Positions 37,082 through 64,000 are shown, counted from the stretch's first letter. The stretch: 64,000 nt of DNA from a virus (IMGVR_UViG_3300029705_000062), one strand, 5' to 3'. Program-made: numbers and translations. Notes: generated from the letters alone by a model not told the origin.

Positions 37082-37098
37082 TTTTAATTATTTGCTTT
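37082..37098 (-). promoter_or_regulatory. AAGCAAATAATTRAAA motif copy 4
   Basis: Sense AAAGCAAATAATTAAAA, followed by TGCAAA-17-TATACT with an extended TG. Confidence 0.5.
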
Positions 37099-46786: not shown

Positions 46787-46803
46787 TTTTAATTATTTGC
46801 TTA
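46787..46803 (-). promoter_or_regulatory. AAGCAAATAATTRAAA motif copy 6
   Basis: Sense TAAGCAAATAATTAAAA, 41-57 nt upstream of the recombinase start. Partial second copy (GCAAATAAAA) at 46761-46776. Confidence 0.5.
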
Positions 46804-49672: not shown

Positions 49673-50065
49673 TTATCCAAAAATAATTTTATCAAATAAA
49701 GCATATTGGATTATACAATCCATATCGTTTGCATCCTCATTACCTTCTTCAAAGATTTCATTAATGTTATAACATCTTCCACTTTCTATGAACTTTTCAA
49801 CACCTTTTAATAATCTGTCATAAGTTAGAAAATATTTTCCATCTTCCTCTTCTATGTCCTTAAATATCATTGGCTTACCATCTTTTAATGCTCTTGCATA
49901 AACATCTTCTATGCAATCATCTTCTTTTCTATATTTTTTATACATTCCTTCTTCTAAACCCATTTCTGAACACCAATAGCTTATACCATAACTAGCACCA
50001 CTCATTATTGTTACAATATCATTTTCAGTTAATTCTGAAACTTTAACTTTTAATTCAAATTTCAT
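49673..50065 (-). CDS. Hypothetical acidic protein
   Basis: 130-aa ORF. Confidence 0.45.
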   Translation of the reverse strand: MKFELKVKVSELTENDIVTIMSGASYGISYWCSEMGLEEGMYKKYRKEDDCIEDVYARALKDGKPMIFKDIEEEDGKYFLTYDRLLKGVEKFIESGRCYNINEIFEEGNEDANDMDCIIQYALFDKIIFG

Positions 50066-50151
50066 TTTATCACCTTTCCTTTTTAAAATTTATATAATAA
50101 AAATATTATCAATACTTATTTAGATATTAAGAAGACCTATAACTCTTTTAT

Positions 50152-50502
50152 CTAAAGCTGATTAATAATATTTTTTATTAGCAAGATATCAATATCTTTT
50201 AAACTAGATAATATTTTATTTCTGTCAATTCTTTTAACATCTAATATATAATCATACAACTCATCTAATTTACTGTCAAATTTATCAACTAAATCTATTA
50301 TTTCATTAAAAGAACTCCTATAATTTTCTAACATACTTTCATATGCTTCAAACTCACTTTGTAGGTTAAGATACTTCTCTTGAATATCTGTAGTATCTAC
50401 TGTTGATAGATGTTCAATTACTTCATATATATCTTCGGATACCTTATCTCTTAAATCCTCCACCTTATTAACATATATTCCTAAGCTATCTACATATACC
50501 AT
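50152..50502 (-). CDS. Helical acidic protein downstream of hicA
   Basis: 116 aa, coiled-coil-like. Lacks the RHH/HTH tail expected of HicB. Confidence 0.45.
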   Translation of the reverse strand: MVYVDSLGIYVNKVEDLRDKVSEDIYEVIEHLSTVDTTDIQEKYLNLQSEFEAYESMLENYRSSFNEIIDLVDKFDSKLDELYDYILDVKRIDRNKILSSLKDIDILLIKNIINQL

Positions 50503-50533
50503 AATTTTTCACAACCCCTTTATATTATTTAAA

Positions 50534-50740
50534 CTATGAATATTTTAACAAAACTTTTTTACTGATACCTGTTTGCCTACATATAGCTGAAATAGTTCCA
50601 TGTGCCAACTGTCTACTAGCTCTATATGGCACTGTTGTTGTCTTACCTTCGTCATTTTTTAATTTTATATGATCTCCATTTGTACTAACTTGTTTCCAAC
50701 CTAGTCTTTTTAGTGCTTTTAAAATATCTTTACAGTTCAA
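50534..50740 (-). CDS. hicA: HicA-family mRNA interferase toxin
   Basis: ILKALKRLGWKQVSTNGDHIKLKN..GKTTTVPY....LAHGTISAICRQTGI fits the HicA dsRBD-like signature with the catalytic His. Start set at TTG 50740 (SD AAGGGGTGG). Confidence 0.65.
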   Translation of the reverse strand: MNCKDILKALKRLGWKQVSTNGDHIKLKNDEGKTTTVPYRASRQLAHGTISAICRQTGISKKVLLKYS

Positions 50741-50783
50741 CAGTTCCACCCCTTTTCTTTTGATAATTTTATTAACCACACCC

Positions 50784-50806
50784 TAAACACACATCTATAA
50801 GGTTTA
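50784..50806 (-). promoter_or_regulatory. Conserved-loop hairpin copy 1
   Basis: TAAAC / GTTTA stem enclosing the + strand loop ACACATCTATAAG. Confidence 0.5.
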
Positions 50807-50868
50807 AATGTAGTTAAATAAATCTTTCATAGCCATATGAAAAACTTATTTAATTACATTTAAAATAT

Positions 50869-50895
50869 ATAGGAGTGGATATTAGCCACCCCTAT
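50869..50895. terminator. Terminator-like hairpin
   Basis: ATAGGAGTGG / CCACCCCTAT stem. Confidence 0.45.
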
Positions 50896-50917
50896 TTAAA
50901 TATATTTTACTCTTTTA

Positions 50918-52777
50918 TTAGCAATATAACACTATATTTCCATTACATTCTATATAAGATACAGTAGTTTCTTTTTCCATATAAGAATCTATATCCATAT
51001 AATCTAAAACATTGTTAGGCAACTTCATTTCTTTTTCTAAATAAAGTCTATAAGCATCTTCTAAATCATATTCAAAGTAACAATATATATCAACTGAATT
51101 AGCCCAACTGTTTAAATCACAACTAAAGCTTAGTAAACTTCTTAATATACTAAAATCATCTCCTAATTCATCTAAAACACTTGTTAAATCTCCAATTAGC
51201 AAATTGATTTCAATACCCAAATATTTTTTTAGCATTCCATTTAATATTCTATCGTCAACTTTAAACTCTTCTATATCTCCTTCAGTATCAATTTTTAATA
51301 TATCTTCTATTTTATCAACTTTGTAGTACTTATCAGATACTTTTATATATGAGTTAGGAATTTCTTGCTCTTGTAAAACTAATTGTATTTCATCAAGTAA
51401 TTCATCTGTTGCTATACCATACCAATATTTTATATCAGACATATGATATATTACATTATTTATTTCCACAAATCTAATGTAATATCTTTCACCTTTTAAA
51501 ACATATAGAGCCTTTGCTAATTCTAACTTTTCATCTTTTACACATGGTATTCCTTTACATTCTATTTTATGACATTGCACAACTCCAACAAATTCTGTTC
51601 CTTTGTATTGTAAATCTATATCATATTTAACTTGTAATGTATTCATACCATTCACTAACTCCTCTTCTATTTTATCTTCACTATCTTTTATTTTATTTAT
51701 AAAGTCTATAAGTTCATCATCATTTTCAAATAAGTGCTTAGTAAGACTACAGTGGTCTTCTAATATCCATTCATTAAGACCTTCAACAACACTATACTCT
51801 AAACTTCCATCTTCGATAGAAACTTCAATGTAATCTCCACCACAATTTATATCAACCTTTAAAATTTCACCCTCTACAACCTTATCCTCTTTATGTTCTG
51901 TAAGATTTATTGATTTATATTCTATACTGTAGCTATTTAGTAGATTTTTAAGATTTTCTACAGTCTTTTCTTTTACAAATCTATCTATATTATCATCAAA
52001 AGTATATCCATTTTTCTCAATCTCTTTATCAACATATTTTGTTATTAAATCAAATGTCCAATCTGAATATTCATAAGCTATATCTAATGAATAATCAATT
52101 AATTGTTGCATAGGTTCTTTATATTGGCTCATGTTATACCCTATGTTAGCATACACCTCTTCATCAAACTCTTCCCAATTAACATTTTCATAAAATTCTC
52201 TACTTTTTATTTCATCTCTTACATATTTTCCTATGCTTGATAACTCTTCCCTATATTCTTTTATCATAGATATATAGTCTTTCATAGAAATTATCATATT
52301 TATTAGAGAAGATTTTCTATATTCATTATCTTCACTATCTATTAGAGCATTTATTTCATCAATGAAACATCTACAGTAGCTATCCATTTTATTTACTGTT
52401 GTTTTACCTTCTTTTTCACAAGTTATAATAACTTCAAAGTCATGTTCTGATTCTATTTGTGTTATAGGAATATCTATAACCTGTGAGTATGAACGTACTA
52501 CATCTATAGCTTTATTTGTTATAACACCTCTAATAAAATCCATTTCATCTTTTATCCAAGTAGTGTATTGATTTATTTCATTATAGTATTCATGATTTTT
52601 ATTTGACTCCAATAATGTGTCATACCAATCAGATAAAGCATTATCTATATTTTCATATTCAAGATGATAATCTTCATTTTGATGACATATTATTTTTCCA
52701 TTTTCTTCAGTAAGCTTATATCCATAAAAATCACATATTTCTTTCATTAATTCATATTTTTTATTATTTGTATTCAT
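50918..52777 (-). CDS. Large acidic hypothetical protein
   Basis: 619-aa ORF, D/E/Y/I-rich, no motif recognised. Confidence 0.5.
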   Translation of the reverse strand: MNTNNKKYELMKEICDFYGYKLTEENGKIICHQNEDYHLEYENIDNALSDWYDTLLESNKNHEYYNEINQYTTWIKDEMDFIRGVITNKAIDVVRSYSQVIDIPITQIESEHDFEVIITCEKEGKTTVNKMDSYCRCFIDEINALIDSEDNEYRKSSLINMIISMKDYISMIKEYREELSSIGKYVRDEIKSREFYENVNWEEFDEEVYANIGYNMSQYKEPMQQLIDYSLDIAYEYSDWTFDLITKYVDKEIEKNGYTFDDNIDRFVKEKTVENLKNLLNSYSIEYKSINLTEHKEDKVVEGEILKVDINCGGDYIEVSIEDGSLEYSVVEGLNEWILEDHCSLTKHLFENDDELIDFINKIKDSEDKIEEELVNGMNTLQVKYDIDLQYKGTEFVGVVQCHKIECKGIPCVKDEKLELAKALYVLKGERYYIRFVEINNVIYHMSDIKYWYGIATDELLDEIQLVLQEQEIPNSYIKVSDKYYKVDKIEDILKIDTEGDIEEFKVDDRILNGMLKKYLGIEINLLIGDLTSVLDELGDDFSILRSLLSFSCDLNSWANSVDIYCYFEYDLEDAYRLYLEKEMKLPNNVLDYMDIDSYMEKETTVSYIECNGNIVLYC

Positions 52778-52813
52778 CTCTATTCAACAATCCTTTTTAT
52801 ATTTATAATATTT

Positions 52814-53470
52814 TTATAAACTTTTACTATCACTACATTCTTTGTACTTATGATTAATAAAGTTATTAATTTCTTCAACTGTAAAAACTCCAAAAGTTTT
52901 TTTCAGCTCTTCATAATCATCTTTATACATCCATTTGTAGCCAAAAGCACTTTGTTTATTTCTTCTTCCTCTACAACAAGCATATATGTCATTTCTATTA
53001 GGTGCTTTACCTAATTCAAGTGTTGCCTTTCTAGTATGGGGATATTCTGCTATAAAAGAGCCATCAGTTTTAGAAAGTTTTACAACAGGTCTAAGTTCAT
53101 TAACTCCACACTTACCTTCTCTTTCAATTCTTCTTATCTGTCCTTTGCTCATGTTAAGTCTTTGCTCTTTACTAAATTCACATCCTTTTTTTCTACCTGC
53201 AACAACTTTATTTTCACCAAACTTATTTAAAAGCTTAGTTTTTATTTTTGATAATGTATTGTATATTATCTTTTCACTTACTGTATTTTCTACAGTATTT
53301 CTAGCATGATTTGGATTTAAAGAATACTCAAATTTATCAAATCTTTGTGGTATTCTAACTTTAAAAATTTCCCCTAGAATAATTACATCCTCTTGCTCTA
53401 GTGGAATGCACTCTCTAAAGTTCGCCCACTCCAATGCATTGTTAATAATATCTTCTCTTGTTTTTTCCAT
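52814..53470 (-). CDS. NUMOD3/IENR1-containing DNA-binding protein (homing-endonuclease-derived)
   Basis: GRKKGCEFSKEQRLNMSKGQ (NUMOD3-like) and ..SAFGYKWMY. No nuclease motif seen. Confidence 0.4.
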   Translation of the reverse strand: MEKTREDIINNALEWANFRECIPLEQEDVIILGEIFKVRIPQRFDKFEYSLNPNHARNTVENTVSEKIIYNTLSKIKTKLLNKFGENKVVAGRKKGCEFSKEQRLNMSKGQIRRIEREGKCGVNELRPVVKLSKTDGSFIAEYPHTRKATLELGKAPNRNDIYACCRGRRNKQSAFGYKWMYKDDYEELKKTFGVFTVEEINNFINHKYKECSDSKSL

Positions 53471-53486
53471 ATGTCTTACCTTCTCC

Positions 53487-53939
53487 CTATCGAATATTTT
53501 TTCTCTCCCAAAATCTATATGAATAAGATATATATGCTTCTTTGATGATTTGTTCCTCAGTTAGTCCACTTGCCCAAGGTTGATTTTTTTCTCTATCTAG
53601 TAAATTATTAAATATATCTACTTCATTCATATCTTTCATTTGTTTATCTAAAGCATCAAACCATTCTTTTTTACTCATGGTCTTTTTATTTTTTAATACA
53701 ATTTTTTCTACTAAAGTACTAATTTTTTTATTAGTGTACAAATCTCTGTAAGAATGTTCTTGATAAGTTGAATAACTGAAAGCATAAGGATTATCAAATG
53801 CCTTATCCTCATTCTTTAAAGAAGGTTTGATATAATAGGTGGTTCTATCACCATTTGGATAACTATCTATAATTTCATATTCCTTATATTCTTCTATATC
53901 AGATATTTTATATCCTTTAAATACATCAACTCTTTTCAT
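53487..53939 (-). CDS. Hypothetical protein
   Basis: Start moved to ATG 53939 (SD AGGTGGAG). The ORF-track extension runs up to the IS right end. Confidence 0.45.
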   Translation of the reverse strand: MKRVDVFKGYKISDIEEYKEYEIIDSYPNGDRTTYYIKPSLKNEDKAFDNPYAFSYSTYQEHSYRDLYTNKKISTLVEKIVLKNKKTMSKKEWFDALDKQMKDMNEVDIFNNLLDREKNQPWASGLTEEQIIKEAYISYSYRFWERKNIR

Positions 53940-53965
53940 ATCTCCACCTAGTTGATTGTAAAATT

Positions 53966-54051
53966 TGAACTTCCCCACCTTAACTACCTACGGTGACGTT
54001 TGAAGGTGGGGATTCCTGTTCGATAGTACTATTGTACTAAGCATCCACAGG
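53966..54051 (-). ncRNA. Putative omega RNA scaffold of the second TnpB
   Basis: Structured GC-richer segment 3' of tnpB with a CCCCACCTT / AAGGTGGGG hairpin at the RE. Confidence 0.45.
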
Positions 54052-55182
54052 CTAATAAGCTTGTTCCAAGCTCACTAATCTTAATCCTTCTTTTAGGATA
54101 TTTTTACTAGCATTTACATCTCTATCATGTTCTTCTCCACATTCAGGACAAGTCCATTTCCTAAGTGCTAGATTCTTTACATCTTTATTTCTATATCCAC
54201 ATACATTACATAGTTGACTTGATGGATATGTTTTATCTATTACTGATATAGTTCTCCCATACCAATTAGCTTTATATTCCAACATTCTTCTGAACTCATA
54301 CCAAGATACTTCACTTATTGCACCAGCTAATTTATGATTTTTCATCATATTACTTACTTTTAAATCTTCTAAACAAATTATTTGGTTTTCTTTAATTAGT
54401 TTAGTTGATATTTTATGCAAATAATCTTTTCTTTGATTTGTAATTCTTTCATGTATCTTAGCAATTTTAATTCTTTGTTTATTCCAATTATTACTGAACT
54501 TTTGCATTTTCGATAATTTTCTTTGTTCTAGCTTTAATCTATAATTAGCCTTTCTTAACCACTTAGGATTATCAAAAACATCTCCATTAGAACATATTGC
54601 AAATTCCTTTAATCCTAAATCTATTCCTACATTAGAATCTACTTTTGAAAGTTGTTCTATATCAACTTTACAACATAGGCTAACAAAATATTTTCCTGTA
54701 GGTGTTTTAGATACTGTCGCATTAAGTATTTTACCTTCTACAACTTGGGAAATCTTTGCTCTAATCCATTTTAGTTTAGGTAACTTAATTAGATTATCTT
54801 TAATGGTTATATTATTATTAACACATTTACTTTCAAAACTTCTCTTTGGATTTCTCTTAGTTTTGAATTTTGGAAATCCTTGATTATTACCTTTTTTAAT
54901 TTCTCTAAAAAAGTTTTGATATGCACTATCTAAATCATCAATAGTAGCCTGTAAACAAGTAGAATCTACTTCTTTAAGCCATTCATATTCTTTTTTTAGT
55001 AATGGTATCATCTTAACTAAATCATACTTTGAATACGATTTACCTTGTTCTTCATATGTTTTAATTTGTAATGCTAACATATTATTATATATGAATCTAC
55101 TACATCCAAATGATTTTTCTATCAGCTGTTTCTGTATCTCACTTGGATATATTCTAAATTTATATGCTTTCATTTGTTCCAT
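54052..55182 (-). CDS. tnpB: TnpB RNA-guided endonuclease
   Basis: RuvC D (VGIDLGL), E (IICLEDLKV), D (DRDVNAS). Zinc finger CNVCG...CPECG. Confidence 0.85.
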
Positions 55183-55268
55183 TGATTTTTTACCTCCTTT
55201 TGTGTATTATTTTGATATATATATTATATCATGTATTATTTTAATGCACAATACTTAGGAGGAAAATT

Positions 55269-55409
55269 ATGTTACAAGTAGTTAATATGAAATACCCAAA
55301 ACAATTGTTAGATAGAATAGACAAGTTTAAAGAAGATATGGGATTTACAACAAGAACTAATGCAATTATTCACTTGATTCTAAATTCATTAGAAACTAAA
55401 GGTTATTAG
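55269..55409 (+). CDS. 46-aa ribbon-helix-helix (CopG/Arc-like) protein inside the IS (not in ORF track)
   Basis: AGGAGG SD 7 nt upstream. MLQVVNMKYPKQLLDRIDKFKEDMGFTTRTNAIIHLILNSLETKGY fits a beta-alpha-alpha RHH pattern. Divergent from tnpB. Confidence 0.55.
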   Translation: MLQVVNMKYPKQLLDRIDKFKEDMGFTTRTNAIIHLILNSLETKGY

Positions 55410-55467
55410 TACCTACGGTTAGGCTTACATCCCCACCCTGCTACGCTGAGGATGGGGTATTACGCCT

Positions 55468-55635
55468 TTAAAAGATAAATTCTATTTCTTCTAAATCACA
55501 AAGAAGCTTATCAAATGAAGGTAAGTATTTAGGATAAGTTATAAGGTTTGCACCTTCTTCATACAATACACCTAAAAATTCATACATTGATTTCATCATT
55601 TCTTTTTTTGCTTTTTCTAATCTTTCAGTATTCAT
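55468..55635 (-). CDS. Hypothetical 55-aa protein (not in ORF track)
   Basis: SD AAGGTGGTAA. Encodes MNTERLEKAKKEMMKSMYEF... The stop codon abuts the IS left end. Confidence 0.4.
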   Translation of the reverse strand: MNTERLEKAKKEMMKSMYEFLGVLYEEGANLITYPKYLPSFDKLLCDLEEIEFIF

Positions 55636-55670
55636 ATTTTTACCACCTTATATTATTATTTTTATCTAAA

Positions 55671-55709
55671 CATTTTTATATCAACACATCTATAGGTGAT
55701 TAAAAAATG
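55671..55709 (-). promoter_or_regulatory. Conserved-loop hairpin copy 2
   Basis: CATTTTTATATCA / TGATTAAAAAATG arms enclosing ACACATCTATAGG. Confidence 0.55.
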
Positions 55710-55762
55710 TAGATAAATAACTCTTTAAATTATAGTCATTTAAAAAGTTATTTATTCACATT

Positions 55763-55779
55763 TTTTAATTATTTGCTTA
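55763..55779 (-). promoter_or_regulatory. AAGCAAATAATTRAAA motif copy 7
   Basis: Sense TAAGCAAATAATTAAAA, about 70 nt upstream of hairpin copy 2. Confidence 0.5.
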
Positions 55780-55823
55780 TGGAATATATTATGCTCATAG
55801 AACATAATATATTCCAATTTATT

Positions 55824-56096
55824 TTATAAAACTTCTATTTTTATAACCTTACTATCTAAACATTCTCCGTCAAACTCATCATTGCAATCAATTACATTAT
55901 CTGTATCAAAATCATTTATAAATTCTGAAGTAGCATTTTCAAAATTACAACTATCTGTTACATATGTGTACGTTCTTTTTGCATAAAGTTCTTCATCAAA
56001 TTCCTTATCAAAATCTTCTTCATTTATATAAGAAACCTTGCATATTTCAGTAACTCTAAGTTCTATCTTTTCATTATTTTTATATAAATTAACCAT
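55824..56096 (-). CDS. Highly acidic small protein
   Basis: 90 aa, about 24 D/E versus 9 K/R by hand count. Confidence 0.5.
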   Translation of the reverse strand: MVNLYKNNEKIELRVTEICKVSYINEEDFDKEFDEELYAKRTYTYVTDSCNFENATSEFINDFDTDNVIDCNDEFDGECLDSKVIKIEVL

Positions 56097-56108
56097 ATTT
56101 ATATCCTC

Positions 56109-56261
56109 CTATTTTACAAATACATCTTTATATCCTATTTCTATAAAAGTTTCTTTAACTTTATCTGCATTGCTCTTACATTTAACTTTAGCTAGTAGTA
56201 TTACTCCATCTTCTTTGTATTGACCATATCCCCATATTTCATACCATACTTTAGTAGCCAT
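56109..56261 (-). CDS. Hypothetical 50-aa protein (not in ORF track)
   Basis: GGTGAAATAAT-ATG initiation block. Encodes MATKVWYEIWGYGQYKEDG... Confidence 0.4.
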   Translation of the reverse strand: MATKVWYEIWGYGQYKEDGVILLAKVKCKSNADKVKETFIEIGYKDVFVK

Positions 56262-56262
56262 A

Positions 56263-56469
56263 TTATTTCACCAACTTTCTAGCACAACTTTTAGCTTCAG
56301 TTAATGTTGCTACACTTAGTTTTGTACATCCTTGATAATCTACTCTATATCTAACTTTATCCTTACCTAGAGGATTGTATTCATACACTCTAATAATATC
56401 TGCACACTCACCATTTTTATCATTGAAGGCAATATATTTACCTTCATGTTCTTTATTTATTCTAATCAT
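56263..56469 (-). CDS. Hypothetical protein
   Basis: 68-aa ORF abutting the upstream stop. Confidence 0.4.
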   Translation of the reverse strand: MIRINKEHEGKYIAFNDKNGECADIIRVYEYNPLGKDKVRYRVDYQGCTKLSVATLTEAKSCARKLVK

Positions 56470-57465
56470 TTATAACACCACCTTTTCTAAAGATACTTGA
56501 ATATGACATATACCTTCTAAAAATAGTTCAAAGTACATTATATTATTATTTTCATATTCATTAACTTCATCTGAACTATCAAGTTCATAACCATCATCTA
56601 AAAATGATTGTTTGTATTCTTCAATAATTAAATCAAAGTTTTTCATACCTTCCTCTTTAGTTCTATAATGAAATACGTTTACTGTGTCTTCATAGCAATT
56701 TTCATTAACACTATGGTCTATTAAAGTATAAAACTCCATTTTTGGCTCTTCCTTAACTTCAACTTCTTCCTCTTTGTCTTTTATTTTAAGTGATAATTTA
56801 ATTTGTAGACTTCCTTCATCATGTAATAGTAAAAACTCATCTCTCTCTCTGTAGTCTATCATATATTTTTTTACTTCCATTTCATTAGAGAAATCAGTAG
56901 TATTATCACTATCATAATCATCATGCTCTATATTATAATGTTCCATTGTAAACTCAATACTCTTTTTTATATCCTTATAGGCATCTACTTCATTAGAAAA
57001 AACTTCTACTGTAGTATCATCAGTAGTGGAAAAATTACCTCTGCTTGAATATGAAACAACATAAACTTTATTTTTATTTCTATCTAAATATCTACTATAT
57101 AAGTCTGAAACTAAGTTCATTGCAATACCACAATCAAATGCTTGTTCTTCTTCACCATTTTCCCAATATTCTTCATATAGTTCTTCTAGCATTTCCCAAC
57201 CATATGATAATTCATATCCTATGTCATTAATTGATACATATTCTTCATTAGTTTCATCTATATCTCCTAGTTCACTACCACAAGAGTCAAATCTAATAAA
57301 CATATTATCTTTTAAGTTTCTAGCAAATAATTCATATCCATGACCTTCAAATACATCATAAAATGCTTTTATTTCATTATCTGTTGCTCCAACAACTCCA
57401 TTATTTTCTAAAAACTCTCTCATAGTGCTTACTTCATGTAAATATACCATATCTTTTAATTTCAT
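56470..57465 (-). CDS. Acidic hypothetical protein
   Basis: Start at ATG 57465 after AAAAAGGAATGGTGAATAAT. Confidence 0.5.
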   Translation of the reverse strand: MKLKDMVYLHEVSTMREFLENNGVVGATDNEIKAFYDVFEGHGYELFARNLKDNMFIRFDSCGSELGDIDETNEEYVSINDIGYELSYGWEMLEELYEEYWENGEEEQAFDCGIAMNLVSDLYSRYLDRNKNKVYVVSYSSRGNFSTTDDTTVEVFSNEVDAYKDIKKSIEFTMEHYNIEHDDYDSDNTTDFSNEMEVKKYMIDYRERDEFLLLHDEGSLQIKLSLKIKDKEEEVEVKEEPKMEFYTLIDHSVNENCYEDTVNVFHYRTKEEGMKNFDLIIEEYKQSFLDDGYELDSSDEVNEYENNNIMYFELFLEGICHIQVSLEKVVL

Positions 57466-57514
57466 ATTATTCACCATTCCTTTTTATATATAGTGTATAC
57501 CTTTATATATTTAA

Positions 57515-57928
57515 CTATCTAATAAATGTATTGTAATCAAATTCTTTAAATACTGTGCATATTTGAACACATAGGTTTATATCTTTTATATCTTGTTCAG
57601 TTAAATTTAAGTTTGAATTTAATTTATTGTATAGACCTTGCCAATAATCTAAACCATCATCATCATTATCATATTCTGCATCTGCACAAAATCTTAAAAT
57701 TGAATCAAACATTTCTTCTTTAAAGCAAACTTTTTTAAGAGTTTTACAAACTTCTTCACAAGTGTCATAAAGTCTTAATTCTTCTTCAATACCATTGAAA
57801 TAAGTTGCTTTTACATCTGTTATAAAATAATATCCTCCAATAGACTTATCCCTATGTTTTAACTCTTCATTTAAAACCTCAATTTTTTCAATATCTTTAC
57901 CAATGTTGTTTATTACCATTCTTTCCAC
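57515..57928 (-). CDS. Hypothetical protein
   Basis: Start uncertain: GTG 57928 by alignment to the conserved RBS block, with 57937 or 57919 as alternatives. Confidence 0.4.
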   Translation of the reverse strand: MERMVINNIGKDIEKIEVLNEELKHRDKSIGGYYFITDVKATYFNGIEEELRLYDTCEEVCKTLKKVCFKEEMFDSILRFCADAEYDNDDDGLDYWQGLYNKLNSNLNLTEQDIKDINLCVQICTVFKEFDYNTFIR

Positions 57929-57946
57929 TTTGTTCACCCTTCCCTT

Positions 57947-58027
57947 TTATAATAATCTTTTAAAATTCTTTATTGTATAAACACATATATAGGCTATCAA
58001 TAAAGAACTTTATGAAGATTATTATAA
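57947..58027 (-). promoter_or_regulatory. Conserved-loop hairpin copy 3 (81-nt two-tier hairpin)
   Basis: Outer arms TTATAATAATCTT / AAGATTATTATAA, inner arms TTCTTTATTG / CAATAAAGAA. The loop contains AACACATATATAGG. Confidence 0.6.
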
Positions 58028-58061
58028 GACTACAGTAAAATTGCTGTAGTCTTATTTTTTT
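58026..58061. terminator. AAGACTA-family terminator hairpin
   Basis: AAGACTACAG / CTGTAGTCTT. The T-run lies on the + strand side. Confidence 0.5.
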
Positions 58062-58066
58062 ATATT

Positions 58067-58351
58067 TTATACATCATAATATTCTGTAAAAGTTACATGA
58101 TTTTTCTTATAATCTACATATACAGTGTGAACTTCCCCTGTGCAATCATACATAGAATTTATATGATAATATTCAGTTTCCATAGGATAATGATTTTGAA
58201 TTAACCAATATTTTATCATTTTCTTTGACCATTTTTTAGGAAAAGCTAGTGTAGTTATTTTTCTCTCATAATCTCCATCAGTTTTAATAATCTGAACACT
58301 TGCTTTTTTAATCTTATCTTTTACTTTAAGTGAAAGTGTATTTACATCCAT
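58067..58351 (-). CDS. Hypothetical protein
   Basis: Start at ATG 58351 after AAAGGATTGGTGAATATA. Confidence 0.45.
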   Translation of the reverse strand: MDVNTLSLKVKDKIKKASVQIIKTDGDYERKITTLAFPKKWSKKMIKYWLIQNHYPMETEYYHINSMYDCTGEVHTVYVDYKKNHVTFTEYYDV

Positions 58352-58374
58352 TATATTCACCAATCCTTTTATAA

Positions 58375-58761
58375 TTATATTGTTATTTCTACAACATCAA
58401 AATTCTCAATAATATCCTTATTATTAAGCCATATATCAAAATTACCTTCTTCATTAATAAAATTTTGTCTACTATTTTTTAGTTCAGTTAAATATAGAAC
58501 ACTTTTACCTTCTTCTTCTATGAACTTATACCAACCTTCATTACTATTTAAATCTTTTACATAAGCCATATTTTTATCAATAGATATTATCTTATAAGCA
58601 ACATTTTCATTGTAAGCTATATCAACCTCTATTTCCATGCTAGTATCATTTACTGATACTAACTTTGAAGGAAAGAAAATATATTCTTCATTTTTATAAA
58701 CATTATCTAAATTCTTGCCTTCTTTAAGTTTCATTACTAAAGTGTTTACAGTATTATTCAT
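58375..58761 (-). CDS. Hypothetical protein
   Basis: 128-aa ORF after AAAAAGGATTGGTGATAAGAAA. Confidence 0.45.
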   Translation of the reverse strand: MNNTVNTLVMKLKEGKNLDNVYKNEEYIFFPSKLVSVNDTSMEIEVDIAYNENVAYKIISIDKNMAYVKDLNSNEGWYKFIEEEGKSVLYLTELKNSRQNFINEEGNFDIWLNNKDIIENFDVVEITI

Positions 58762-58789
58762 TTTCTTATCACCAATCCTTTTTATAATT

Positions 58790-58870
58790 TTATAATAATC
58801 TTTTTAAATGCTCCACATCATAAACACATATATAGGTTATATGTGAAACACTTAATTAAGACTATTATAA
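58790..58870 (-). promoter_or_regulatory. Conserved-loop hairpin copy 4 (two-tier)
   Basis: Outer arms TTATAATAATCTT / AAGACTATTATAA, inner arms CACATCATAA / TTATATGTG, loop ACACATATATAGG. Confidence 0.55.
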
Positions 58871-58900
58871 GACTACAGTAGTAGTTACTGTAGTCTTTTT
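58869..58900. terminator. AAGACTA-family terminator hairpin
   Basis: AAGACTACAGTA / TACTGTAGTCTT plus a + strand T-run. Confidence 0.5.
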
Positions 58901-58904
58901 ATTC

Positions 58905-59396
58905 TTATACTATCTTAGATTTTAACAACTCAATATGATTATCATGTATTTCTTCATTAGCTATATCTTTTTTTAGTTCTTCATTTAACTTTTGAAAATA
59001 TTTATCTAAAGTATTTAATATTTTAGTGGCATTACCTTTTGTTTTTCTATATCTTAATTTTCTTCTACTGTAGCATAAATATTTGTCTTGTGGCTTTATT
59101 AAATATGAATTATCTAAAATCTTTAATTCCAAGTTATTAGGAACTTCACTATTTAAAGTTATGTCTTTATCAAACTCTTTCCCTTCAACATCTATCATAA
59201 ATGCTACACTAAGCATATCATTTTGCCATATTCCATTAGCAACTTCACTATTATTATTAGATAGTAAACATCTTACAGAAATACTTCTATATAAACTTTT
59301 ATTTAAACCTACTAAACATCTACTATCAGTAAAGTATTTTCCATAACTTTTTTGAATATTTTCTAAAAAATTTTGAACTGTCATATTATTTTCCAT
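58905..59396 (-). CDS. Hypothetical protein
   Basis: 163-aa ORF after AAAAAGGATTAGGTGAATAGAT. Confidence 0.45.
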   Translation of the reverse strand: MENNMTVQNFLENIQKSYGKYFTDSRCLVGLNKSLYRSISVRCLLSNNNSEVANGIWQNDMLSVAFMIDVEGKEFDKDITLNSEVPNNLELKILDNSYLIKPQDKYLCYSRRKLRYRKTKGNATKILNTLDKYFQKLNEELKKDIANEEIHDNHIELLKSKIV

Positions 59397-59440
59397 ATCT
59401 ATTCACCTAATCCTTTTTAATTATTTTTAGGTATCTTTTT

Positions 59441-59463
59441 TATCAACACATATATAGGTGATA
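59441..59463 (-). promoter_or_regulatory. Conserved-loop hairpin copy 5
   Basis: TATCA / TGATA stem, loop ACACATATATAGG. Confidence 0.5.
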
Positions 59464-59550
59464 TTTAAGTTACCTTATCAATCTATAATCTTTTTATAGA
59501 CTGATAAGAGAACTTAAACAGTCCTCTTATAAATATATTTATCTTTTGTA

Positions 59551-60138
59551 TTAATAATTTAAACTTTCATAGTACACTTCACAAACATTTTTTGCCTGTT
59601 CCATATTTGCACATGGATAAGGTAGTTCATTTCCAAAGATAGGTAAGTATACATCATTTCCTTCAACATCCTCTGAAGTTATAACTTCTATTCCATTACT
59701 TAAGAATATAGAACAACATTCTTTGTCAAATGTTATATTCTTATTATCATATTTTTCATAGTCATATTTATGTTCTATGTATAACTCTAAGTATTCTAGT
59801 AAATCCCCATATGTTGCACAAGGAACAGACCAATCTTGTAATTCTTCCACAAATAACTCATAAATACCTTCTTTTGTATTTATAACAACTGTTGCTCCAA
59901 TATTAAGTTCAAATATATTACTTTTTAATGTTGGACTTTTTGATGTTTTTGTAATCTTAACATCTTTATTCTTTAGTAAAAGTGCAAATAATGACTTTGG
60001 TTGACTATTGGCTATTTGTAAAAAATTAGAGTTTTGTAATTCACTAGAGTTTGGATAAGCACAACTTTCAGAATACATCATTGAACTTGTTATTAAAGTT
60101 GCTCCAATAATACCTATCATTTTGTTTTTTAATTTCAT
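59551..60138 (-). CDS. Secreted hypothetical protein (N-terminal signal peptide)
   Basis: MKLKNKMIGIIGATLITSSMMYS hydrophobic leader. The only signal peptide I noticed in the accessory island. Confidence 0.45.
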   Translation of the reverse strand: MKLKNKMIGIIGATLITSSMMYSESCAYPNSSELQNSNFLQIANSQPKSLFALLLKNKDVKITKTSKSPTLKSNIFELNIGATVVINTKEGIYELFVEELQDWSVPCATYGDLLEYLELYIEHKYDYEKYDNKNITFDKECCSIFLSNGIEVITSEDVEGNDVYLPIFGNELPYPCANMEQAKNVCEVYYESLNY

Positions 60139-60230
60139 ATCTATTCACCAATCCTTTTTAATTATTTAGAGTATAGTCTTTAATACTCTTTTAAACCTAC
60201 AATTTACATTGTAGATATAAGAGAATATTA

Positions 60231-60259
60231 AAGACTATGTATTTCTACATAGTCTTTTT
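60231..60259. terminator. AAGACTA-family terminator hairpin
   Basis: AAGACTATGTA / TACATAGTCTT plus a + strand T-run. Confidence 0.5.
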
Positions 60260-60263
60260 ATCC

Positions 60264-60428
60264 TTACATTATTTCCTTTATCTTATTTCTTAGATTATAG
60301 AATTGTTCCATAACTTCCATATCTAAAACATCTTTGTCATTAATTTTACGAGCATATTCTTCTCTATCATCTATAAATACTTCTATAGCTATAGATATAT
60401 TTTCAAGTTCTTCTTTACTGAATATCAT
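60264..60428 (-). CDS. Hypothetical 54-aa protein (not in ORF track)
   Basis: GGTGAATAAAT-ATG block. Encodes MIFSKEELENISIAIEVFIDD... Confidence 0.4.
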   Translation of the reverse strand: MIFSKEELENISIAIEVFIDDREEYARKINDKDVLDMEVMEQFYNLRNKIKEIM

Positions 60429-60443
60429 ATTTATTCACCTTCC

Positions 60444-61094
60444 TTACATTACTTCTTCATAGTTGTCAACATCTATTTCTATACCATCTTTTGTAAAGTA
60501 ATAGTTATTTTCTTCAAGATATTCAATTATATATTCGTCATTTTCATAACTTTCAGATATATCATATCCTATACTTTCAAGTTCACCTGATATGTCTTTT
60601 ACATCATATTTAATAAATTCTTCTAATTCATATACAGAATTAGTCATTTCTTCTACATCACTGTCTTTTGCTCTATAACTCATATATTCGTCAACATAAC
60701 CATTTACTTCAACTATCATAGTATTATAATGGTCATACAAGTGAAAATATTGATTTTTTCTAATATCTATTGTAAGTCCTTCTTTAGCAATATATTTTAC
60801 TCTTCTTAAATCATGCTTAGATAAACTTTTTTCTAATTCTTCATGTCTTATTTGAATAAATTCTTCTAAATCTATTGTTCCATAAAATGCCATACCATCA
60901 CCTTGACAATGATTTAAACTGTATCTTATATCATCAGTTGGATAACCTTTTTCTTCTAGTCTTTGTATAAACTCATCTTTTATGTCAAAGTTTACAATAT
61001 CATTGAAATCATATCTATGTTTATCTATAACTTTTGCTTTAACCTTATCTGATAACTCACTTACTTTGTAAACATCTAATCCTATTTTTTTCAT
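60444..61094 (-). CDS. Acidic hypothetical protein
   Basis: 216-aa ORF after AAAAAAGGATTAGGTGAATAGAT. Confidence 0.5.
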   Translation of the reverse strand: MKKIGLDVYKVSELSDKVKAKVIDKHRYDFNDIVNFDIKDEFIQRLEEKGYPTDDIRYSLNHCQGDGMAFYGTIDLEEFIQIRHEELEKSLSKHDLRRVKYIAKEGLTIDIRKNQYFHLYDHYNTMIVEVNGYVDEYMSYRAKDSDVEEMTNSVYELEEFIKYDVKDISGELESIGYDISESYENDEYIIEYLEENNYYFTKDGIEIDVDNYEEVM

Positions 61095-61132
61095 ATCTAT
61101 TCACCTAATCCTTTTTTAATAATATTTTCTAA

Positions 61133-61182
61133 AAGACTACAATAACATTTAACACATCTATAGGTAAATTTATTGTAATCTT
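61133..61182 (-). promoter_or_regulatory. Conserved-loop hairpin copy 6
   Basis: AAGACTACAATAACATTTA / TAAATTTATTGTAATCTT arms (1 mismatch, 1 bulge), loop ACACATCTATAGG. Confidence 0.6.
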
Positions 61183-61190
61183 TATATAAA

Positions 61191-61218
61191 ATACTATTAA
61201 AGAGGACATAATTTTGTG
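61191..61218. terminator. Terminator hairpin
   Basis: AGAGGACATA / TATGTCCTCT. Confidence 0.5.
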
Positions 61219-61235
61219 TATGTCCTCTATGCTTT

Positions 61236-61718
61236 TTACCAATTTTGACTACAATATATCACATAGTCTTCAAAATCAATAAAACTATCTAGACAAGTAT
61301 TTTTAAATTCATTTTCAAGTTCTCTATATCCATCACCTTGGAAAGTCCATACTTCGTCTTCATTTCCATTACATATTGATAAGAACTCAAAACTACTTTC
61401 GTGGTCAATCCAAGTATTTTCATCACTTTCCCAAGTTTCTACAGTAGATTTTACATCTTTAACAATATTTCTAAAATTTTCACCTTCTATTTTTTTGTAA
61501 TATTGAAAAGTAGTTTTTGCTTTTTTATAGTCATCAAAGTAATGTCCCCATACTAAATTATGATTTTCTTCAGTGTGTCCATAACCTTTAGTGTGTATTG
61601 AATATTCAATTTTAACTTCTAAATCACCATTAGTATATACTGTACTATCTATCCATTGAACAAGAACTTTATTATCCATACCTTCATCTAGTATTGTACT
61701 TATCTTTTTACTTATCAT
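61236..61718 (-). CDS. Hypothetical protein
   Basis: 160-aa ORF after AAAAAGGATTAGGTGAATAGAT. Confidence 0.45.
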   Translation of the reverse strand: MISKKISTILDEGMDNKVLVQWIDSTVYTNGDLEVKIEYSIHTKGYGHTEENHNLVWGHYFDDYKKAKTTFQYYKKIEGENFRNIVKDVKSTVETWESDENTWIDHESSFEFLSICNGNEDEVWTFQGDGYRELENEFKNTCLDSFIDFEDYVIYCSQNW

Positions 61719-61747
61719 ATCTATTCACCTAATCCTTTTTAATTATT

Positions 61748-61791
61748 TGTGTTATCTTATACTAACATCTATAGTAGTAATTTGTAACACA
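61748..61791 (-). promoter_or_regulatory. Conserved-loop hairpin copy 7 (divergent)
   Basis: TGTGTTA / TAACACA outer arms and TACTA / TAGTA inner arms around CTAACATCTATAGTA. Confidence 0.4.
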
Positions 61792-61851
61792 TTCAAGCAC
61801 TCAAAATAGTTTCACATAAAACATTTTGAGTACTCAATCTATTACAATTTA

Positions 61852-62187
61852 CTATTCTTCACATTCTTCATAGTATTCTTCAAGTTCAATTTCTATTTCT
61901 TCCCATACCTTCTCACATTGTTCTTCAAGTTGTTCTTCTAGTTGCAATGCTTGTTCTTCAGTATCACAACTTATATAATATGAGTAGTCTTCATAGGTAT
62001 CTACTCTATCCTTAAATTTAGGATTAATTTCAATAAACTTACTAATGATATCCTCGAATTTATCAACTAGACTTACAACATCATAGTTATCTAATTCTAA
62101 TGCAACATCTAATAGATGTTCTCTAGCATCTGAAAACTTGAACTTAACATCTTTTTTATACTCATCATTTACACTTACATACCACAT
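61852..62187 (-). CDS. Extremely acidic small protein
   Basis: 111 aa, about 35 D/E versus 11 K/R by hand count. C-terminal EEQLEEQCEKVWEEIEIELEEYYEECEE. Confidence 0.5.
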   Translation of the reverse strand: MWYVSVNDEYKKDVKFKFSDAREHLLDVALELDNYDVVSLVDKFEDIISKFIEINPKFKDRVDTYEDYSYYISCDTEEQALQLEEQLEEQCEKVWEEIEIELEEYYEECEE

Positions 62188-62201
62188 ATTTATTCACCTT
62201 C

Positions 62202-62393
62202 CTATATTAAATATTTTAAAGTTTCATTATCAAAGTCATAACTTTGTAATTTTTTAAAGTAACTTTTATCTTTATTAATTACATTCTCAATAAAGTCATT
62301 TATTTCTTTTAGTAGTTCTTTATCTTCACTAATCTTATATTCTGTCATCATACCTACTAACTTTATTAAATTATTTTTTGTTACTCTCTTCAT
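62202..62393 (-). CDS. Hypothetical protein
   Basis: 63-aa ORF after AAAAAGGATTAGGTGATTAAAT. Confidence 0.4.
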   Translation of the reverse strand: MKRVTKNNLIKLVGMMTEYKISEDKELLKEINDFIENVINKDKSYFKKLQSYDFDNETLKYLI

Positions 62394-62413
62394 ATTTAAT
62401 CACCTAATCCTTT

Positions 62414-62491
62414 TTATAATAATCTTTAAAAGAGTATGATTTTAAACACATCTATAAGTTAAAATCATACTCTTTATTAAGATTATTATAA
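62414..62491 (-). promoter_or_regulatory. Conserved-loop hairpin copy 8 (78 nt, ~30-bp stem)
   Basis: TTATAATAATCTTTAAAAGAGTATGATTTTA pairs with TAAAATCATACTCTTTATTAAGATTATTATAA. Loop AACACATCTATAAGT. Confidence 0.6.
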
Positions 62492-62492
62492 T

Positions 62493-62517
62493 AAGAGTGT
62501 GAGAATATCACACTCTT
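62493..62517. terminator. Terminator hairpin
   Basis: AAGAGTGTG / CACACTCTT. Confidence 0.5.
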
Positions 62518-62531
62518 TTATAATTAACATT

Positions 62532-62861
62532 CTATTTAATTATTGAAATATTTTTCTCTACAAATATATTAAAAAGTTCAATCAGTGACTTAGCTTTATT
62601 TTCTACTGTATCACCTTCTTTTACTGATTTTAAAAGGTTATCAATATTAAAAGGCATATTTGTAATAAAATATTTGTCATCTTTTTTAAAGTTCACAATA
62701 ACAGATTTTAATTTATTATTTTCTAATTTCTCAATAATATTTTGATAACATTTTTTACTTTGCCAAACATGAGTATCATTCATTCTATTATCATTGCAAA
62801 CTATAGTTTGGATATAACTTCTATTATTTTTGTATTTTCCTATTATTTCAATTTTTAACAT
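62532..62861 (-). CDS. Hypothetical protein
   Basis: 109-aa ORF after AAAAAGGATTAGGTGATTAAAT. Confidence 0.45.
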   Translation of the reverse strand: MLKIEIIGKYKNNRSYIQTIVCNDNRMNDTHVWQSKKCYQNIIEKLENNKLKSVIVNFKKDDKYFITNMPFNIDNLLKSVKEGDTVENKAKSLIELFNIFVEKNISIIK

Positions 62862-62894
62862 ATTTAATCACCTAATCCTTTTTATAATTTTATT

Positions 62895-62957
62895 TTATAG
62901 CATACCAACAAGGGAATAGCCTACAGTTAATATTGCTATTAATTTTAAAACATCCAT
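62895..62957 (-). CDS. 20-aa hydrophobic micro-ORF (not in ORF track)
   Basis: GGTGAATAAAAT-ATG block identical in style to neighbouring genes. Encodes MDVLKLIAILTVGYSLVGML. Confidence 0.25.
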   Translation of the reverse strand: MDVLKLIAILTVGYSLVGML

Positions 62958-63106
62958 ATTTTATTCACCTTCTTTTATGCTAATCTTAAAGAACTATTAT
63001 TTTTTTTAGTTCTCTTAAAAAATCATAATCTTTTAAAAATTATAATCTTTTAAGGGAACTAAAAAAGACTATAGTCTTTTAACTATAGTCTTTTATTCCT
63101 AATCTT

Positions 63107-63541
63107 TTAACCTACAACTTGTAAATCCATGTTTAATGTGAAACTATGTGATACCCCATTATCATTGTCATTGAAGAACTCTAAATACTCATTTTCATTG
63201 TTTTTATTACATCTAACATAAGTAACATTATTTAAAGTTTCTTTTTCTCTGTTACCTAAATTATTTTTTAATGCTTTGTTTAGAGTTTTTACATAGTCTT
63301 TAGCCATATTTAAACTTGGAAATTGTTCTAAAGTACAAACATCATGGTCAGTAGTAAATATTCTTACCATATATACTCTTTTAGTTCTATCATAGTTATC
63401 AACTGAATCTATAAATAAACCATTTACATATGTTGAATGAATAATACCACTCCATACCTTCATAGTACTTTTACTAAAGAAATGATGTCCTTTAGCTTGA
63501 TTTAAATTTCTCATTTCAGTTATAGTATATTTTCTACTCAT
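63107..63541 (-). CDS. Hypothetical protein
   Basis: 144-aa ORF after AAAAAAGGATTAGGTGATTAATT. Confidence 0.45.
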   Translation of the reverse strand: MSRKYTITEMRNLNQAKGHHFFSKSTMKVWSGIIHSTYVNGLFIDSVDNYDRTKRVYMVRIFTTDHDVCTLEQFPSLNMAKDYVKTLNKALKNNLGNREKETLNNVTYVRCNKNNENEYLEFFNDNDNGVSHSFTLNMDLQVVG

Positions 63542-63587
63542 AATTAATCACCTAATCCTTTTTTAAAATTTATTTTTTAGGTATGTA

Positions 63588-63611
63588 TTAGACAACATTT
63601 ATAGCATCTAA
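63588..63611 (-). promoter_or_regulatory. Conserved-loop hairpin copy 9 (divergent)
   Basis: TTAGA / TCTAA stem, loop CAACATTTATAGCA. Confidence 0.4.
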
Positions 63612-63732
63612 CTTTATACCCTTCAAAGTACACAAATATATTAACCTTTATGTACTTTGAAGGATAGACAATACCAAGTATTTTGATATTATCCATACCT
63701 TTTAAAGGATTAAAAGGAATAAAATTTGGTGA

Positions 63733-63775
63733 TTTCCGACAAATTCAATTATTGCTTTGGTAAATTTGTCGGAAA
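63733..63775 (-). promoter_or_regulatory. 13-bp-stem hairpin displaying a degenerate AAGCAATAATTGAA motif in its loop
   Basis: TTTCCGACAAATT / AAATTTGTCGGAAA. The loop in sense reads ACCAAAGCAATAATTG. Confidence 0.45.
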
Positions 63776-63810
63776 AATACGATAGGATAAATTATGCACT
63801 AGGTCGCAGT

Positions 63811-63827
63811 GTGATACAGTGTATCAC
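63811..63827. promoter_or_regulatory. Perfect 17-bp palindrome
   Basis: GTGATACAGTGTATCAC, inside a GC-richer ORF-free stretch at the window edge. Confidence 0.5.
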
Positions 63828-64000
63828 CAAGAGTACAGATAGGATTAACTAGAGCAAATCATTCAAACCGACCAAGATAACAGAGCCTTTAAACCTATGC
63901 GATACAAGAGCATAGAAGGAATAATAAATTAGTACACATGATAAAACAGGCTATACAGTGCAAGTAGTTCAAGTCTTGCAAAGAGCAACAGAAAGAGCCA

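Follow-up and report, generated by a model that had tools for sequence, protein, structure and literature searches.

A conserved loop on covarying stems, a probable RNA element in the leaders of an early gene array of an SPbeta-like phage

The 64,000-nt viral DNA stretch IMGVR_UViG_3300029705_000062 (the window, by which we mean the whole of that stretch) raises the question of what is read in a short sequence that recurs at the tips of nine hairpins, each in front of minus-strand genes between positions 50784 and 63611, on stems that differ from copy to copy. A reading of the sequence alone had listed these hairpins and proposed four roles for them, namely a 5'-untranslated operator for an RNA-binding regulator, an RNase III-type processing site, a hairpin or cruciform promoter, or a mobile promoter-stem-loop (PeSL) cassette of the kind known from phage T4. 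Comparison with related metagenomic phages indicates that the pairing of the stems is selected and kept by compensatory changes, and we consider it probable that the element acts as RNA. The hairpins lie at the start, within 13 kb, of the 64 kb that run in the early-to-middle gene direction of an uncultivated SPbeta-like temperate phage.

A shared loop core upstream of start codons

The loop motif ACACATMTATARG on the + strand (C[CT]TATA[GT]ATGTGT on the minus strand) has seven exact matches in the window, at positions 50789, 55684, 57981, 58824, 59446, 61152 and 62446, against none expected from 100 dinucleotide shuffles. At the two other listed sites the 10-nt core YTATAKATGT occurs alone, as CTATAGATGT at 61765-61774 and as CTATAAATGT at 63595-63604 (minus-strand reading). 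With the core forced to stay unpaired, all nine copies fold with it at the tip. The initial description of nine hairpins sharing one 13-nt loop therefore stands for the core and not for the 13-mer, which is found in seven of the nine; the conserved unit is the 10-nt core, and two copies are variants. Decayed copies, with the loop and the inner stem deleted, are present in two additional intergenic regions.

The placement in front of operon-leading genes, first estimated at about 55 nt, was borne out: over 56 copies the core starts 50-78 nt before the start codon, and the hicA unit fits the same spacing with a TTG start of its 68-aa product.

Rfam gave no gathering-score match for the window or for locus L120, and none at E<=1 within 50000-64000. 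The motif was not found in a relevant context in the literature, and protein-seeded scans of IMG/VR with the 335-aa and 619-aa proteins returned no close relatives. A scan of IMG/VR with a 15-mer motif produced 119 single matches attributable to chance, as were all five matches of a core-plus-ribosome-binding-site pattern in GTDB representative genomes.

Covariation of the stems

In the protein collection, 28 proteins are homologous to the 335-aa array protein, and contigs were fetched for seven of them. Each of these seven related phages, all from metagenomes, has 8-12 copies of the element, apart from the most distant, L129 (40% protein identity), where a single copy is canonical and the loops of three others are altered (CCTTATAAGTGTGT, CCTTATTGATGTGT and CCTATGTATGTGT). 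Over all loci the invariant part of the loop is UAU-NNN-UGU, and the loop is 10, 13 or 14 nt long.

Forty-nine non-redundant copies from eight loci were compared in a gapped alignment of our own that allows for these three loop lengths. A MAFFT alignment of all 49 misregistered the loop-length classes, and the formal pair count was made on the 20 copies with 13-nt loops. Among the 49 copies, the five loop-adjacent pairs are formed in 94, 98, 98, 92 and 86% of cases, with three to four Watson-Crick types at each position, compared with 6-59% in out-of-register controls. In the set of 20, 82.5% of the cells are paired (57% after shuffling, 32-47% with the partners slid) and the covariation score is 0.721, against 0.203 for shuffled alignments, none of which reached the observed value in 500 trials, and 0.08-0.15 with the partners slid. 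Double changes between orthologues preserve the stems, as in TATCA/TGATA to TACTA/TAGTA, or GAGTAT/ATACTC to GACTAT/ATAGTC or GGATAT/ATATCC, and an outer-stem compensatory change at L127 5848 suggests that pairing extends even to the base of the long hairpins. The covariation is strong, and it upholds the proposal that a constant loop on varying stems marks a selected structure, beyond a promoter hexamer.

When pairs were allowed only from arm to arm, four of the nine window copies were extreme (z-scores of -6.9 to -11.8, with at most 0.13% of 1500 random positions as good), two were moderate (-2.5 and -3.6) and three weak (-1.4 to -1.9). All nine lie within the best 18% of the 1500 random positions, and their Fisher combination is about 1e-9. 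The duplexes comprise 32-35 pairs in four copies, 23-25 in two, and 13-18 interrupted pairs in the remaining three. Stems of 5 to about 30 bp had been described; the long ones exist, at 32-35 pairs, and the "short" ones turned out to be the inner part of imperfect hairpins of 13-35 pairs (for example 50765-50824, 55655-55721 and 59429-59475). A covariance-model search recovered the seven class-A window copies, all of which belong to its training set of 13-nt-loop copies. It gave no match elsewhere in the window or over 10 kb of the late region; the motif is restricted to the array.

Strand preference of the hairpin

A G:U pair on one strand corresponds to an A:C mismatch on the other, so that the kinds of mismatch can be compared between strands. 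At the five loop-adjacent pairs, 18 sense-type G:U pairs were counted and a single antisense-type (A:C) one. Over whole stems the counts were 54 and 15, or 46 and 15 when each sequence context was counted once (p=4e-5). Base composition is not the cause of this bias, because the same arms out of register gave ratios of 0.8-1.1. The sense hairpin is also the more stable in 41 of 57 copies, with a mean of -16.7 kcal/mol as opposed to -13.2 kcal/mol. Since a cruciform would penalise both kinds of mismatch equally and a template-strand hairpin of the phage N4 type would reverse the bias, the hairpin is most simply taken to form in the sense (minus-strand) RNA. Of the four roles initially offered, the wobble asymmetry favours those exerted at the RNA level (5'-untranslated operator and processing site) and counts against the cruciform promoter.

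A probable role in the RNA

The element is probably a stem-loop in the sense RNA, placed in a leader between a terminator-like hairpin and a strong Shine-Dalgarno (SD) site. A stem of 13-35 pairs, free in sequence, would display the single-stranded loop (CC)(U)UAUAKAUGU(GU) to one common reader, which might be a phage or host protein, a nuclease or another RNA. Its most likely role would be in processing, stability or translation/read-through control within polycistronic transcripts. Processing is suggested by the stems of up to 35 pairs, the intercistronic position, the polypurine SD leader that follows each copy and the precedent of phages SP82 and T7. An RNase III substrate offers roughly two helical turns, about 20 bp or longer, of largely paired RNA. 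The longest stems are of this size, and they exceed what a simple protein operator would need. Close alternatives that also operate on RNA are antitermination of the boxB/put type and a translational operator of the RegA or MS2 type.

A more specific scheme, plausible though somewhat short of probable, is that the small-gene array is transcribed mostly as a read-through polycistronic RNA in which the hairpins are control points between cistrons. The long duplexes would then be substrates for an RNase III-type cut, and the loop would govern recognition or register; cutting would part the cistrons from one another and set how stable each cassette mRNA is and how it is translated, after the example of early RNA in SP82 and T7. 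In line with read-through expression, the conserved 195-aa gene at 59551-60138 remains intact although the copy in front of it no longer has a loop. We hold only tentatively, as the less likely outcome, that a system dedicated to reading the loop, and new to Firmicute phages, uses the hairpins as its cis sites. A protein or nuclease, encoded by the phage or the host, would read (CC)UAUAKAUGU(GU) on any stem and thereby switch, cut or anti-terminate an entire exchangeable array of genes that are early, mostly acidic and of the anti-defence type, the same elements serving as joints for cassette swaps.

Several points weigh against an RNA element with a processing role. Three of the nine window copies are no more stable than shuffles, and the copies share descent, so that the counts obtained from them are not independent. 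The wobble bias could partly reflect a strand-specific transition bias, and it is from this bias alone that we infer transcription through the left arm. To our knowledge, a conserved loop is not normally a requirement of RNase III, and the array proteins, which gave no informative matches, yielded no candidate for a reader of the loop. Each hairpin follows a terminator-like stem-loop, and in PeSL cassettes this position is taken by a promoter. No strong promoter was found upstream of the array or of its first copy, a gap that weakens every model.

Other ideas on the function of the loop were rejected. A mini open reading frame (ORF) starting from the loop AUG has no SD site and a length as expected by chance. 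Self-pairing of the loop through CUAUAG is lost in the copies in which K is U, and the sole site complementary to the loop lies within a methyltransferase gene. A large non-coding RNA upstream of the array, in a G+C-richer stretch of the gene-free region, had a z-score of -1.2 and was poorly conserved in L124.

Alternative explanations

In a core-anchored alignment aCCTATAGATGTGTT is the sole conserved block, with no second block at a fixed distance from the core, and when the alignment is anchored on the start codon the leader with the ribosome-binding site alone is conserved. The core is thus the only conserved block between the terminator-like hairpin and the ribosome-binding site, a place occupied by the promoter in T4 PeSL cassettes (PMC4122927), and it contains a TATA-type hexamer. 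It could accordingly be a DNA-level promoter, in which the core (TATAGAT, TATATAT or TATAAAT) would serve as a -10-like or single-block signal for the host sigma-A RNA polymerase or for a phage factor, the inverted repeat being either incidental or a means of extruding or pre-melting the core, as in a Gram-positive counterpart of the phage N4 promoters. The best match to a -35 box upstream of TATAKA is 4/6, seen in 27% of copies and in 15% of controls, and none reaches 5/6; in copies 7 and 9, TTGAAT or TTGAAG lies 17 bp upstream of the hexamer. Sigma-70-type sites are not enriched in 50-64 kb (97 against 114 expected), and the canonical promoters lie elsewhere in the window (TTGACA-16-TATAAT at 28707, TTGACA-18-TATAAT at 13260 and TTGACA-17-TACAAT at 45789). 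The array, having none, must be either read through from upstream or driven in an unorthodox manner, and the need for another driver speaks for the promoter.

Against it, the hexamer lacks the T that promoters conserve at -7, and -35 boxes are not enriched. A cruciform requires both strands to fold, and the mismatches are strongly of the G:T kind on one strand alone; N4-type hairpins form on the template strand, and here the non-template strand is favoured. About 77 kb of the genome yielded neither a phage RNA polymerase nor a sigma factor, and two cassettes have lost the core and retained the gene behind it. We judge a DNA-level promoter to be unlikely, though deserving of attention, and its simplest form, a plain TATAGA -10 box with transcription starting after the hairpin, is disfavoured by these patterns.

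Core-like sequences without a hairpin, upstream of holin genes and of the first late-strand genes (ORFs of 63 and 362 aa), can be cited in favour of a promoter. They comprise a duplicated 20-mer, AACATC(G/A)TCTTTATAAATGTG, at L141 11763 and 11853 on the late strand upstream of the holin genes and outside the window, which holds the core-like TTATAAATGT, and, some 350 nt before the 63-aa ORF that comes first on the late strand, the core-like TTATAGATGT at L120 2638 (also late strand). These late-strand matches may be due to chance or may hint at a role of the core in DNA.

Variants of the promoter idea fared no better. Placing the -10 box within the right arm, or the core within the spacer between -35 and -10, works for single copies only, with nothing conserved there. 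A T7/SP6-like promoter (CTATAG) on either strand lacks a conserved upstream specificity region. A homologue of the YonO-type RNA polymerase was absent by tblastn from the window and the related loci, and YonO in any case drives one late operon; no core-like motif was present upstream of SPbeta yonK. The 619-aa protein, considered as a hidden polymerase, is highly acidic, shows no DxDGD-type motif on reading its sequence and has no sequence match in Pfam, PHROG or PDB.

For the exchange of genes along the array, hairpins were clustered by arm sequence and flanking proteins by BLASTP over the eight loci. One hairpin family can precede three to five unrelated gene families across phages, one gene family can follow different hairpin families, and the order of the hairpin families along the array is kept between phages. 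The analogy with T4 PeSLs consequently holds in part, with hairpin families in a fixed order and the adjoining genes exchanged, and fails in that no recognisable -35/-10 promoter is present. These patterns, and the tyrosine recombinase gene at 45838-46746, would suit elements acting mainly as recombination joints, whose loop, outer stem and leader would offer homology or site-specific targets for cassette exchange in the manner of PeSLs or of integron attC sites, any effect on expression being secondary. Homologous exchange, however, requires neither a hairpin nor the compensatory upkeep of its stem. In integron attC sites the core sites at the base of the hairpin are conserved, the centre is variable and the site travels with the upstream gene; here the pattern is the reverse, with a conserved tip on a variable stem, and the hairpins are not consistently tied to the gene on either side, including the upstream one. 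The fixed orientation and the distance of 50-78 nt to the start codon point to a role in expression, and we find a joint as the main role improbable.

A second motif bears on the remaining possibility, in which a DNA-binding repressor would recognise the core as its operator. In SPbeta, some 10 promoter regions that serve lytic genes contain the 15-bp SPbeta repeated element (SPBRE), to which MrpR binds (PMC10516654). We recovered SPBRE as CAAATACAAAWAATATGTATATA, a fixed dyad, often inside a sigma-A promoter, that has no variable stems. The motif AAGCAAATAATTRAAA, or motif-2, which has CAAATA in common with SPBRE, has 19 matches with at most two mismatches in the window (1.9 expected), of which 18 are on the gene (minus) strand; the matches head multi-gene units throughout the 64 kb. 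Exact matches are found at 3055-3070, 9076-9091, 18246-18261, 37082-37097, 46787-46802 and 55763-55778, and the motif is also present at 13242-13257 and about 45770-45785. It sits in the spacer of the perfect TTGACA-N17/18-TA(T/C)AAT promoters at 13260 and 45789, the latter (N17, TACAAT) just upstream of an operon with an mrpR-like gene. Motif-2 is a likely operator of the MrpR-like repressor, and as the better candidate it lowers the case for an operator in the hairpin loop. That the core should be the counterpart of SPBRE for MrpR/YopR, or resemble the mycobacteriophage "stoperators", is very improbable: the phage encodes an MrpR homologue (44211-45101), copy 1 heads an operon containing an mrpR-like gene and the core is asymmetric, in a single orientation, intergenic and present in about 10 copies, but it is dissimilar to the dyadic SPBRE, and a protein that binds duplex DNA gives no cause for covariation of the flanks or for strand-biased wobble.

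The individual copies and their surroundings

All copies are on the minus strand and are numbered here from the lowest coordinate. Copy 1 (50765-50824; loop CTTATAGATGTGT) has about 25 pairs, four of them G:U, and a z-score of -2.5; it folds at -14.8 kcal/mol in the sense and -7.0 kcal/mol in the antisense, and heads the operon hicA, integrase and mrpR-like gene. Copy 2 (55655-55721; loop CCTATAGATGTGT; about 23 pairs; z -1.9) is preceded by a hairpin with TATAAT in its loop and by the motif-2 at 55763-55778. Copies 3 (57947-58027; z -6.9) and 4 (58790-58870; z -7.2) both display CCTATATATGTGT on about 32 pairs, several of which are G:U in copy 4, where the sense fold of -26.9 kcal/mol compares with -13.5 kcal/mol for the antisense. 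The same loop CCTATATATGTGT is carried by copy 5 (59429-59475; z -3.6) on an inner TATCA/TGATA and an outer GGTA..CTT/AAG..TACC stem, with TACTA/TAGTA in the orthologues. Copy 6 (61115-61201; loop CCTATAGATGTGT) has about 33 pairs, a z-score of -8.4 and folds of -24.1 (sense) and -16.0 kcal/mol (antisense). The variant copy 7 (61748-61791), with the 10-nt loop CTATAGATGT and a z-score of -1.4, reaches just 14.1 bits with the covariance model; in its orthologues the paired segments are conserved and the internal loop is variable. Copy 8 (62409-62496; loop CTTATAGATGTGT) has about 35 pairs, with the outer stem TTATAATAATCTT/AAGATTATTATAA, a z-score of -11.8 and compensatory changes in L124, L126 and L127. 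The variant copy 9 (63579-63621; loop CTATAAATGT; z -1.5) heads the first array gene, which encodes a DUF7447 protein (63107-63541), and its pairing is kept in the L124 and L127 orthologues. Of the decayed copies, also on the minus strand, that at about 60168-60191 has lost some 16-20 nt (loop and inner right arm) relative to L126 and L132, leaving a 7-bp remnant hairpin, and that at 62984-63017 is shorter than its equivalents in L127 and L132 by about 19 nt, the loop among them.

The hairpin is followed by a leader with the ribosome-binding site, for example AAAAAGGATTAGGTGAATAGATATG at 59397-59421 (minus strand); the exact leader sequence AAGGATTAGGTGA occurs at 59403, 61101, 61725, 62400, 62868 and 63548. 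Directly before the conserved-loop hairpin stands a G+C-richer, terminator-like stem-loop ("hairpin 1"), as at 58024-58055, whose + strand carries a better T-run than its gene strand. Other terminator-like hairpins precede array elements at 58869-58897, 60230-60257, 61201-61228 and 62493-62517. Seven terminator-like sites were called in 50-64 kb against 1.1 expected, five of them on the + strand. In those after array genes the gene strand carries an A-run, and the T-run is on the + strand, which is antisense to every gene; they may stop antisense transcription, work in both directions or serve only to stabilise 3' ends.

The extra hairpin upstream of copy 2 (55722-55760, minus strand) is perfect and carries TATAAT in its loop (e.g. 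CTCTTTAAgttaatataaTTTAAAGAG); it has counterparts in L129 at about 860-900 and 2940-2985. The right arm of this hairpin and the left arm of the conserved-loop one overlap in sequence, and the two structures may be alternatives.

Genome context

The window has 27% G+C, and nearly all its genes are on the minus strand. It encodes a PolIII-alpha polymerase with 42-43% identity to SPbeta YorL, as well as a DnaB-type helicase, primase, RecJ, NAD-dependent ligase, NrdD and ThyX. The 296-aa MrpR/YopR homologue at 44211-45101 (minus strand) matches Pfam MrpR_N_CB (5.5e-13, 49.8 bits with a cut-off of 27) and YopR by BLASTP (23% identity, E=2e-7), and a tyrosine integrase/recombinase gene lies at 45838-46746 (minus strand). 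The same genome was found in two JGI metagenomes as contigs of 125,973 and 125,962 bp, in which BhlA-type holin, amidase and tail-fibre genes lie beyond the window on the opposite strand. The phage is assigned to the SPbeta-like temperate phages because of its YorL-like polymerase, MrpR homologue, integrase and holin, amidase and tail-fibre genes. The MrpR/YopR-like repressor, of the recombinase fold, forms a row of three minus-strand genes with an HNH-domain protein (45076-45723) and the tyrosine integrase, echoing SPbeta yopP-yopQ-yopR.

The array proteins are small, mostly acidic and without family matches except for HicA, a TnpB and DUF7447. Two IS605-family OrfB/TnpB-type genes are present, one within the small-gene array (54052-55182, minus strand) and one at 39607-40848 (+ strand). 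The former has 82.5% DNA identity to a stretch of Clostridioides phage HGP05 and was the sole nucleotide match of the region to deposited phages in the phage collection. Its structured, G+C-rich flanks (e.g. L120 11998-12100) may represent a guide RNA or a transposon end. The PolIII-alpha-type DNA polymerase is split into ORFs of 817 and 469 aa with an HNH/NUMOD homing-endonuclease gene between them (22107-23516, 23542-24534 and 24868-27321, all on the minus strand); a LAGLIDADG/HTH protein (10119-11126) and traces of NUMOD1 (12596-13132) suggest several homing elements.

Between the divergent late and early directions lies a gene-free region of 1.6 kb (window 63611-64000 and L120 2290-3200, just past position 64000), in which AT-rich, iteron-like repeats of TATATAG and ACTATA units (L120 about 2730-2880) may mark a replication origin. 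The ORFs of 63 and 362 aa on the other strand occupy the position of SPbeta yonK/yonJ, with no tblastn similarity to either. A ParM/ALP-like actin-family protein is encoded at 13377-14327 on the + strand, opposite to its neighbours; its Pfam matches are weak and it adjoins a perfect sigma-A promoter. Together with the circular-looking 126-kb assemblies, it makes a plasmid-like prophage state possible.

Discussion

Early accessory arrays are the usual seat of host-takeover and anti-defence genes. Should the loop be an RNA signal, it would provide a single handle on the coordinated control of the whole early accessory-gene array in SPbeta-like phages of low-G+C anaerobes, a large and uncultivated group, and would be a phage-specific structured motif, absent from Rfam, with clear covariation and about 10 copies per genome. 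Should it instead be a promoter in a hairpin loop, it would be the first N4-type counterpart outside that family. The kind of element is familiar, both as a cis-regulatory hairpin with a specific loop and as a shufflable intergenic cassette; the present combination is undescribed.

Among known systems, the RNase III sites of T7 and of SP82/SPO1 (Bs-RNase III) resemble the array in being stem-loops between the cistrons of an early polycistronic region, with a duplex suited to RNase III, and in the Firmicute phages SP82 and SPO1 the early sites adjoin a strong polypurine SD leader. They differ in having no invariant apical loop of 10-13 nt, and in the present array cleavage is a prediction and several stems are short and interrupted. 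The boxB (nut) sites of lambda N and the put sites of HK022 are likewise small early-leader hairpins, with their specificity in the loop and not in the stem, in regions punctuated by terminators. These sites occur once or twice per genome, just after early promoters, and boxB is a 5-nt loop on a 5-bp stem; unlike them, the array yielded no N-like protein, boxA or Rfam match.

The substrates of yeast Rnt1p, in which an AGNN tetraloop acts as a ruler for RNase III cleavage, provide another case of a constant loop on arbitrary stems read by a double-strand-specific nuclease. The enzyme is eukaryotic and its loop is of 4 nt, which makes the likeness an analogy only, and we know of no bacterial or phage counterpart. 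In the virion RNA polymerase promoters of phage N4, the template strand forms a stem of 5-7 bp with a loop of 3 nt, and these promoters depend on a giant virion RNA polymerase (PMC4496689). They share with the present element a conserved sequence at the tip of a hairpin upstream of early genes, and are unlike it in that here the loop is of 10-14 nt, the non-template strand is favoured and the sequence examined holds no RNA polymerase homologue (including YonO by tblastn). SPBRE and MrpR belong to the same phage lineage, as judged from the YorL-like polymerase, the MrpR homologue and the BhlA holin, and also place about 10 copies of a short motif before lytic-cycle genes (PMC10516654), but SPBRE is a fixed dyad in duplex DNA, whereas the present motif is asymmetric and stands on variable, covarying stems.

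The T4 PeSLs consist of a terminator stem-loop followed by a recognisable sigma-70 -35/-10 promoter, and these cassettes are conserved while the genes between them are swapped (PMC2839356; PMC4122927). Both systems place short composite intergenic cassettes, repeated and with an adjoining stem-loop, before small orphan genes in a hyperplastic early region; in ours too a terminator-like hairpin directly precedes the element, and the genes beside a given hairpin family differ among the eight loci. The difference lies in the second part of the cassette, which has no -35/-10 pair and instead carries its conserved block in the loop of a second hairpin with a covarying stem. The notion that conserved regulatory joints permit the shuffling of cassettes would thereby reach beyond the T4-like phages, whose hosts are Gram-negative, to a temperate lineage of Gram-positive hosts, with a different kind of joint.

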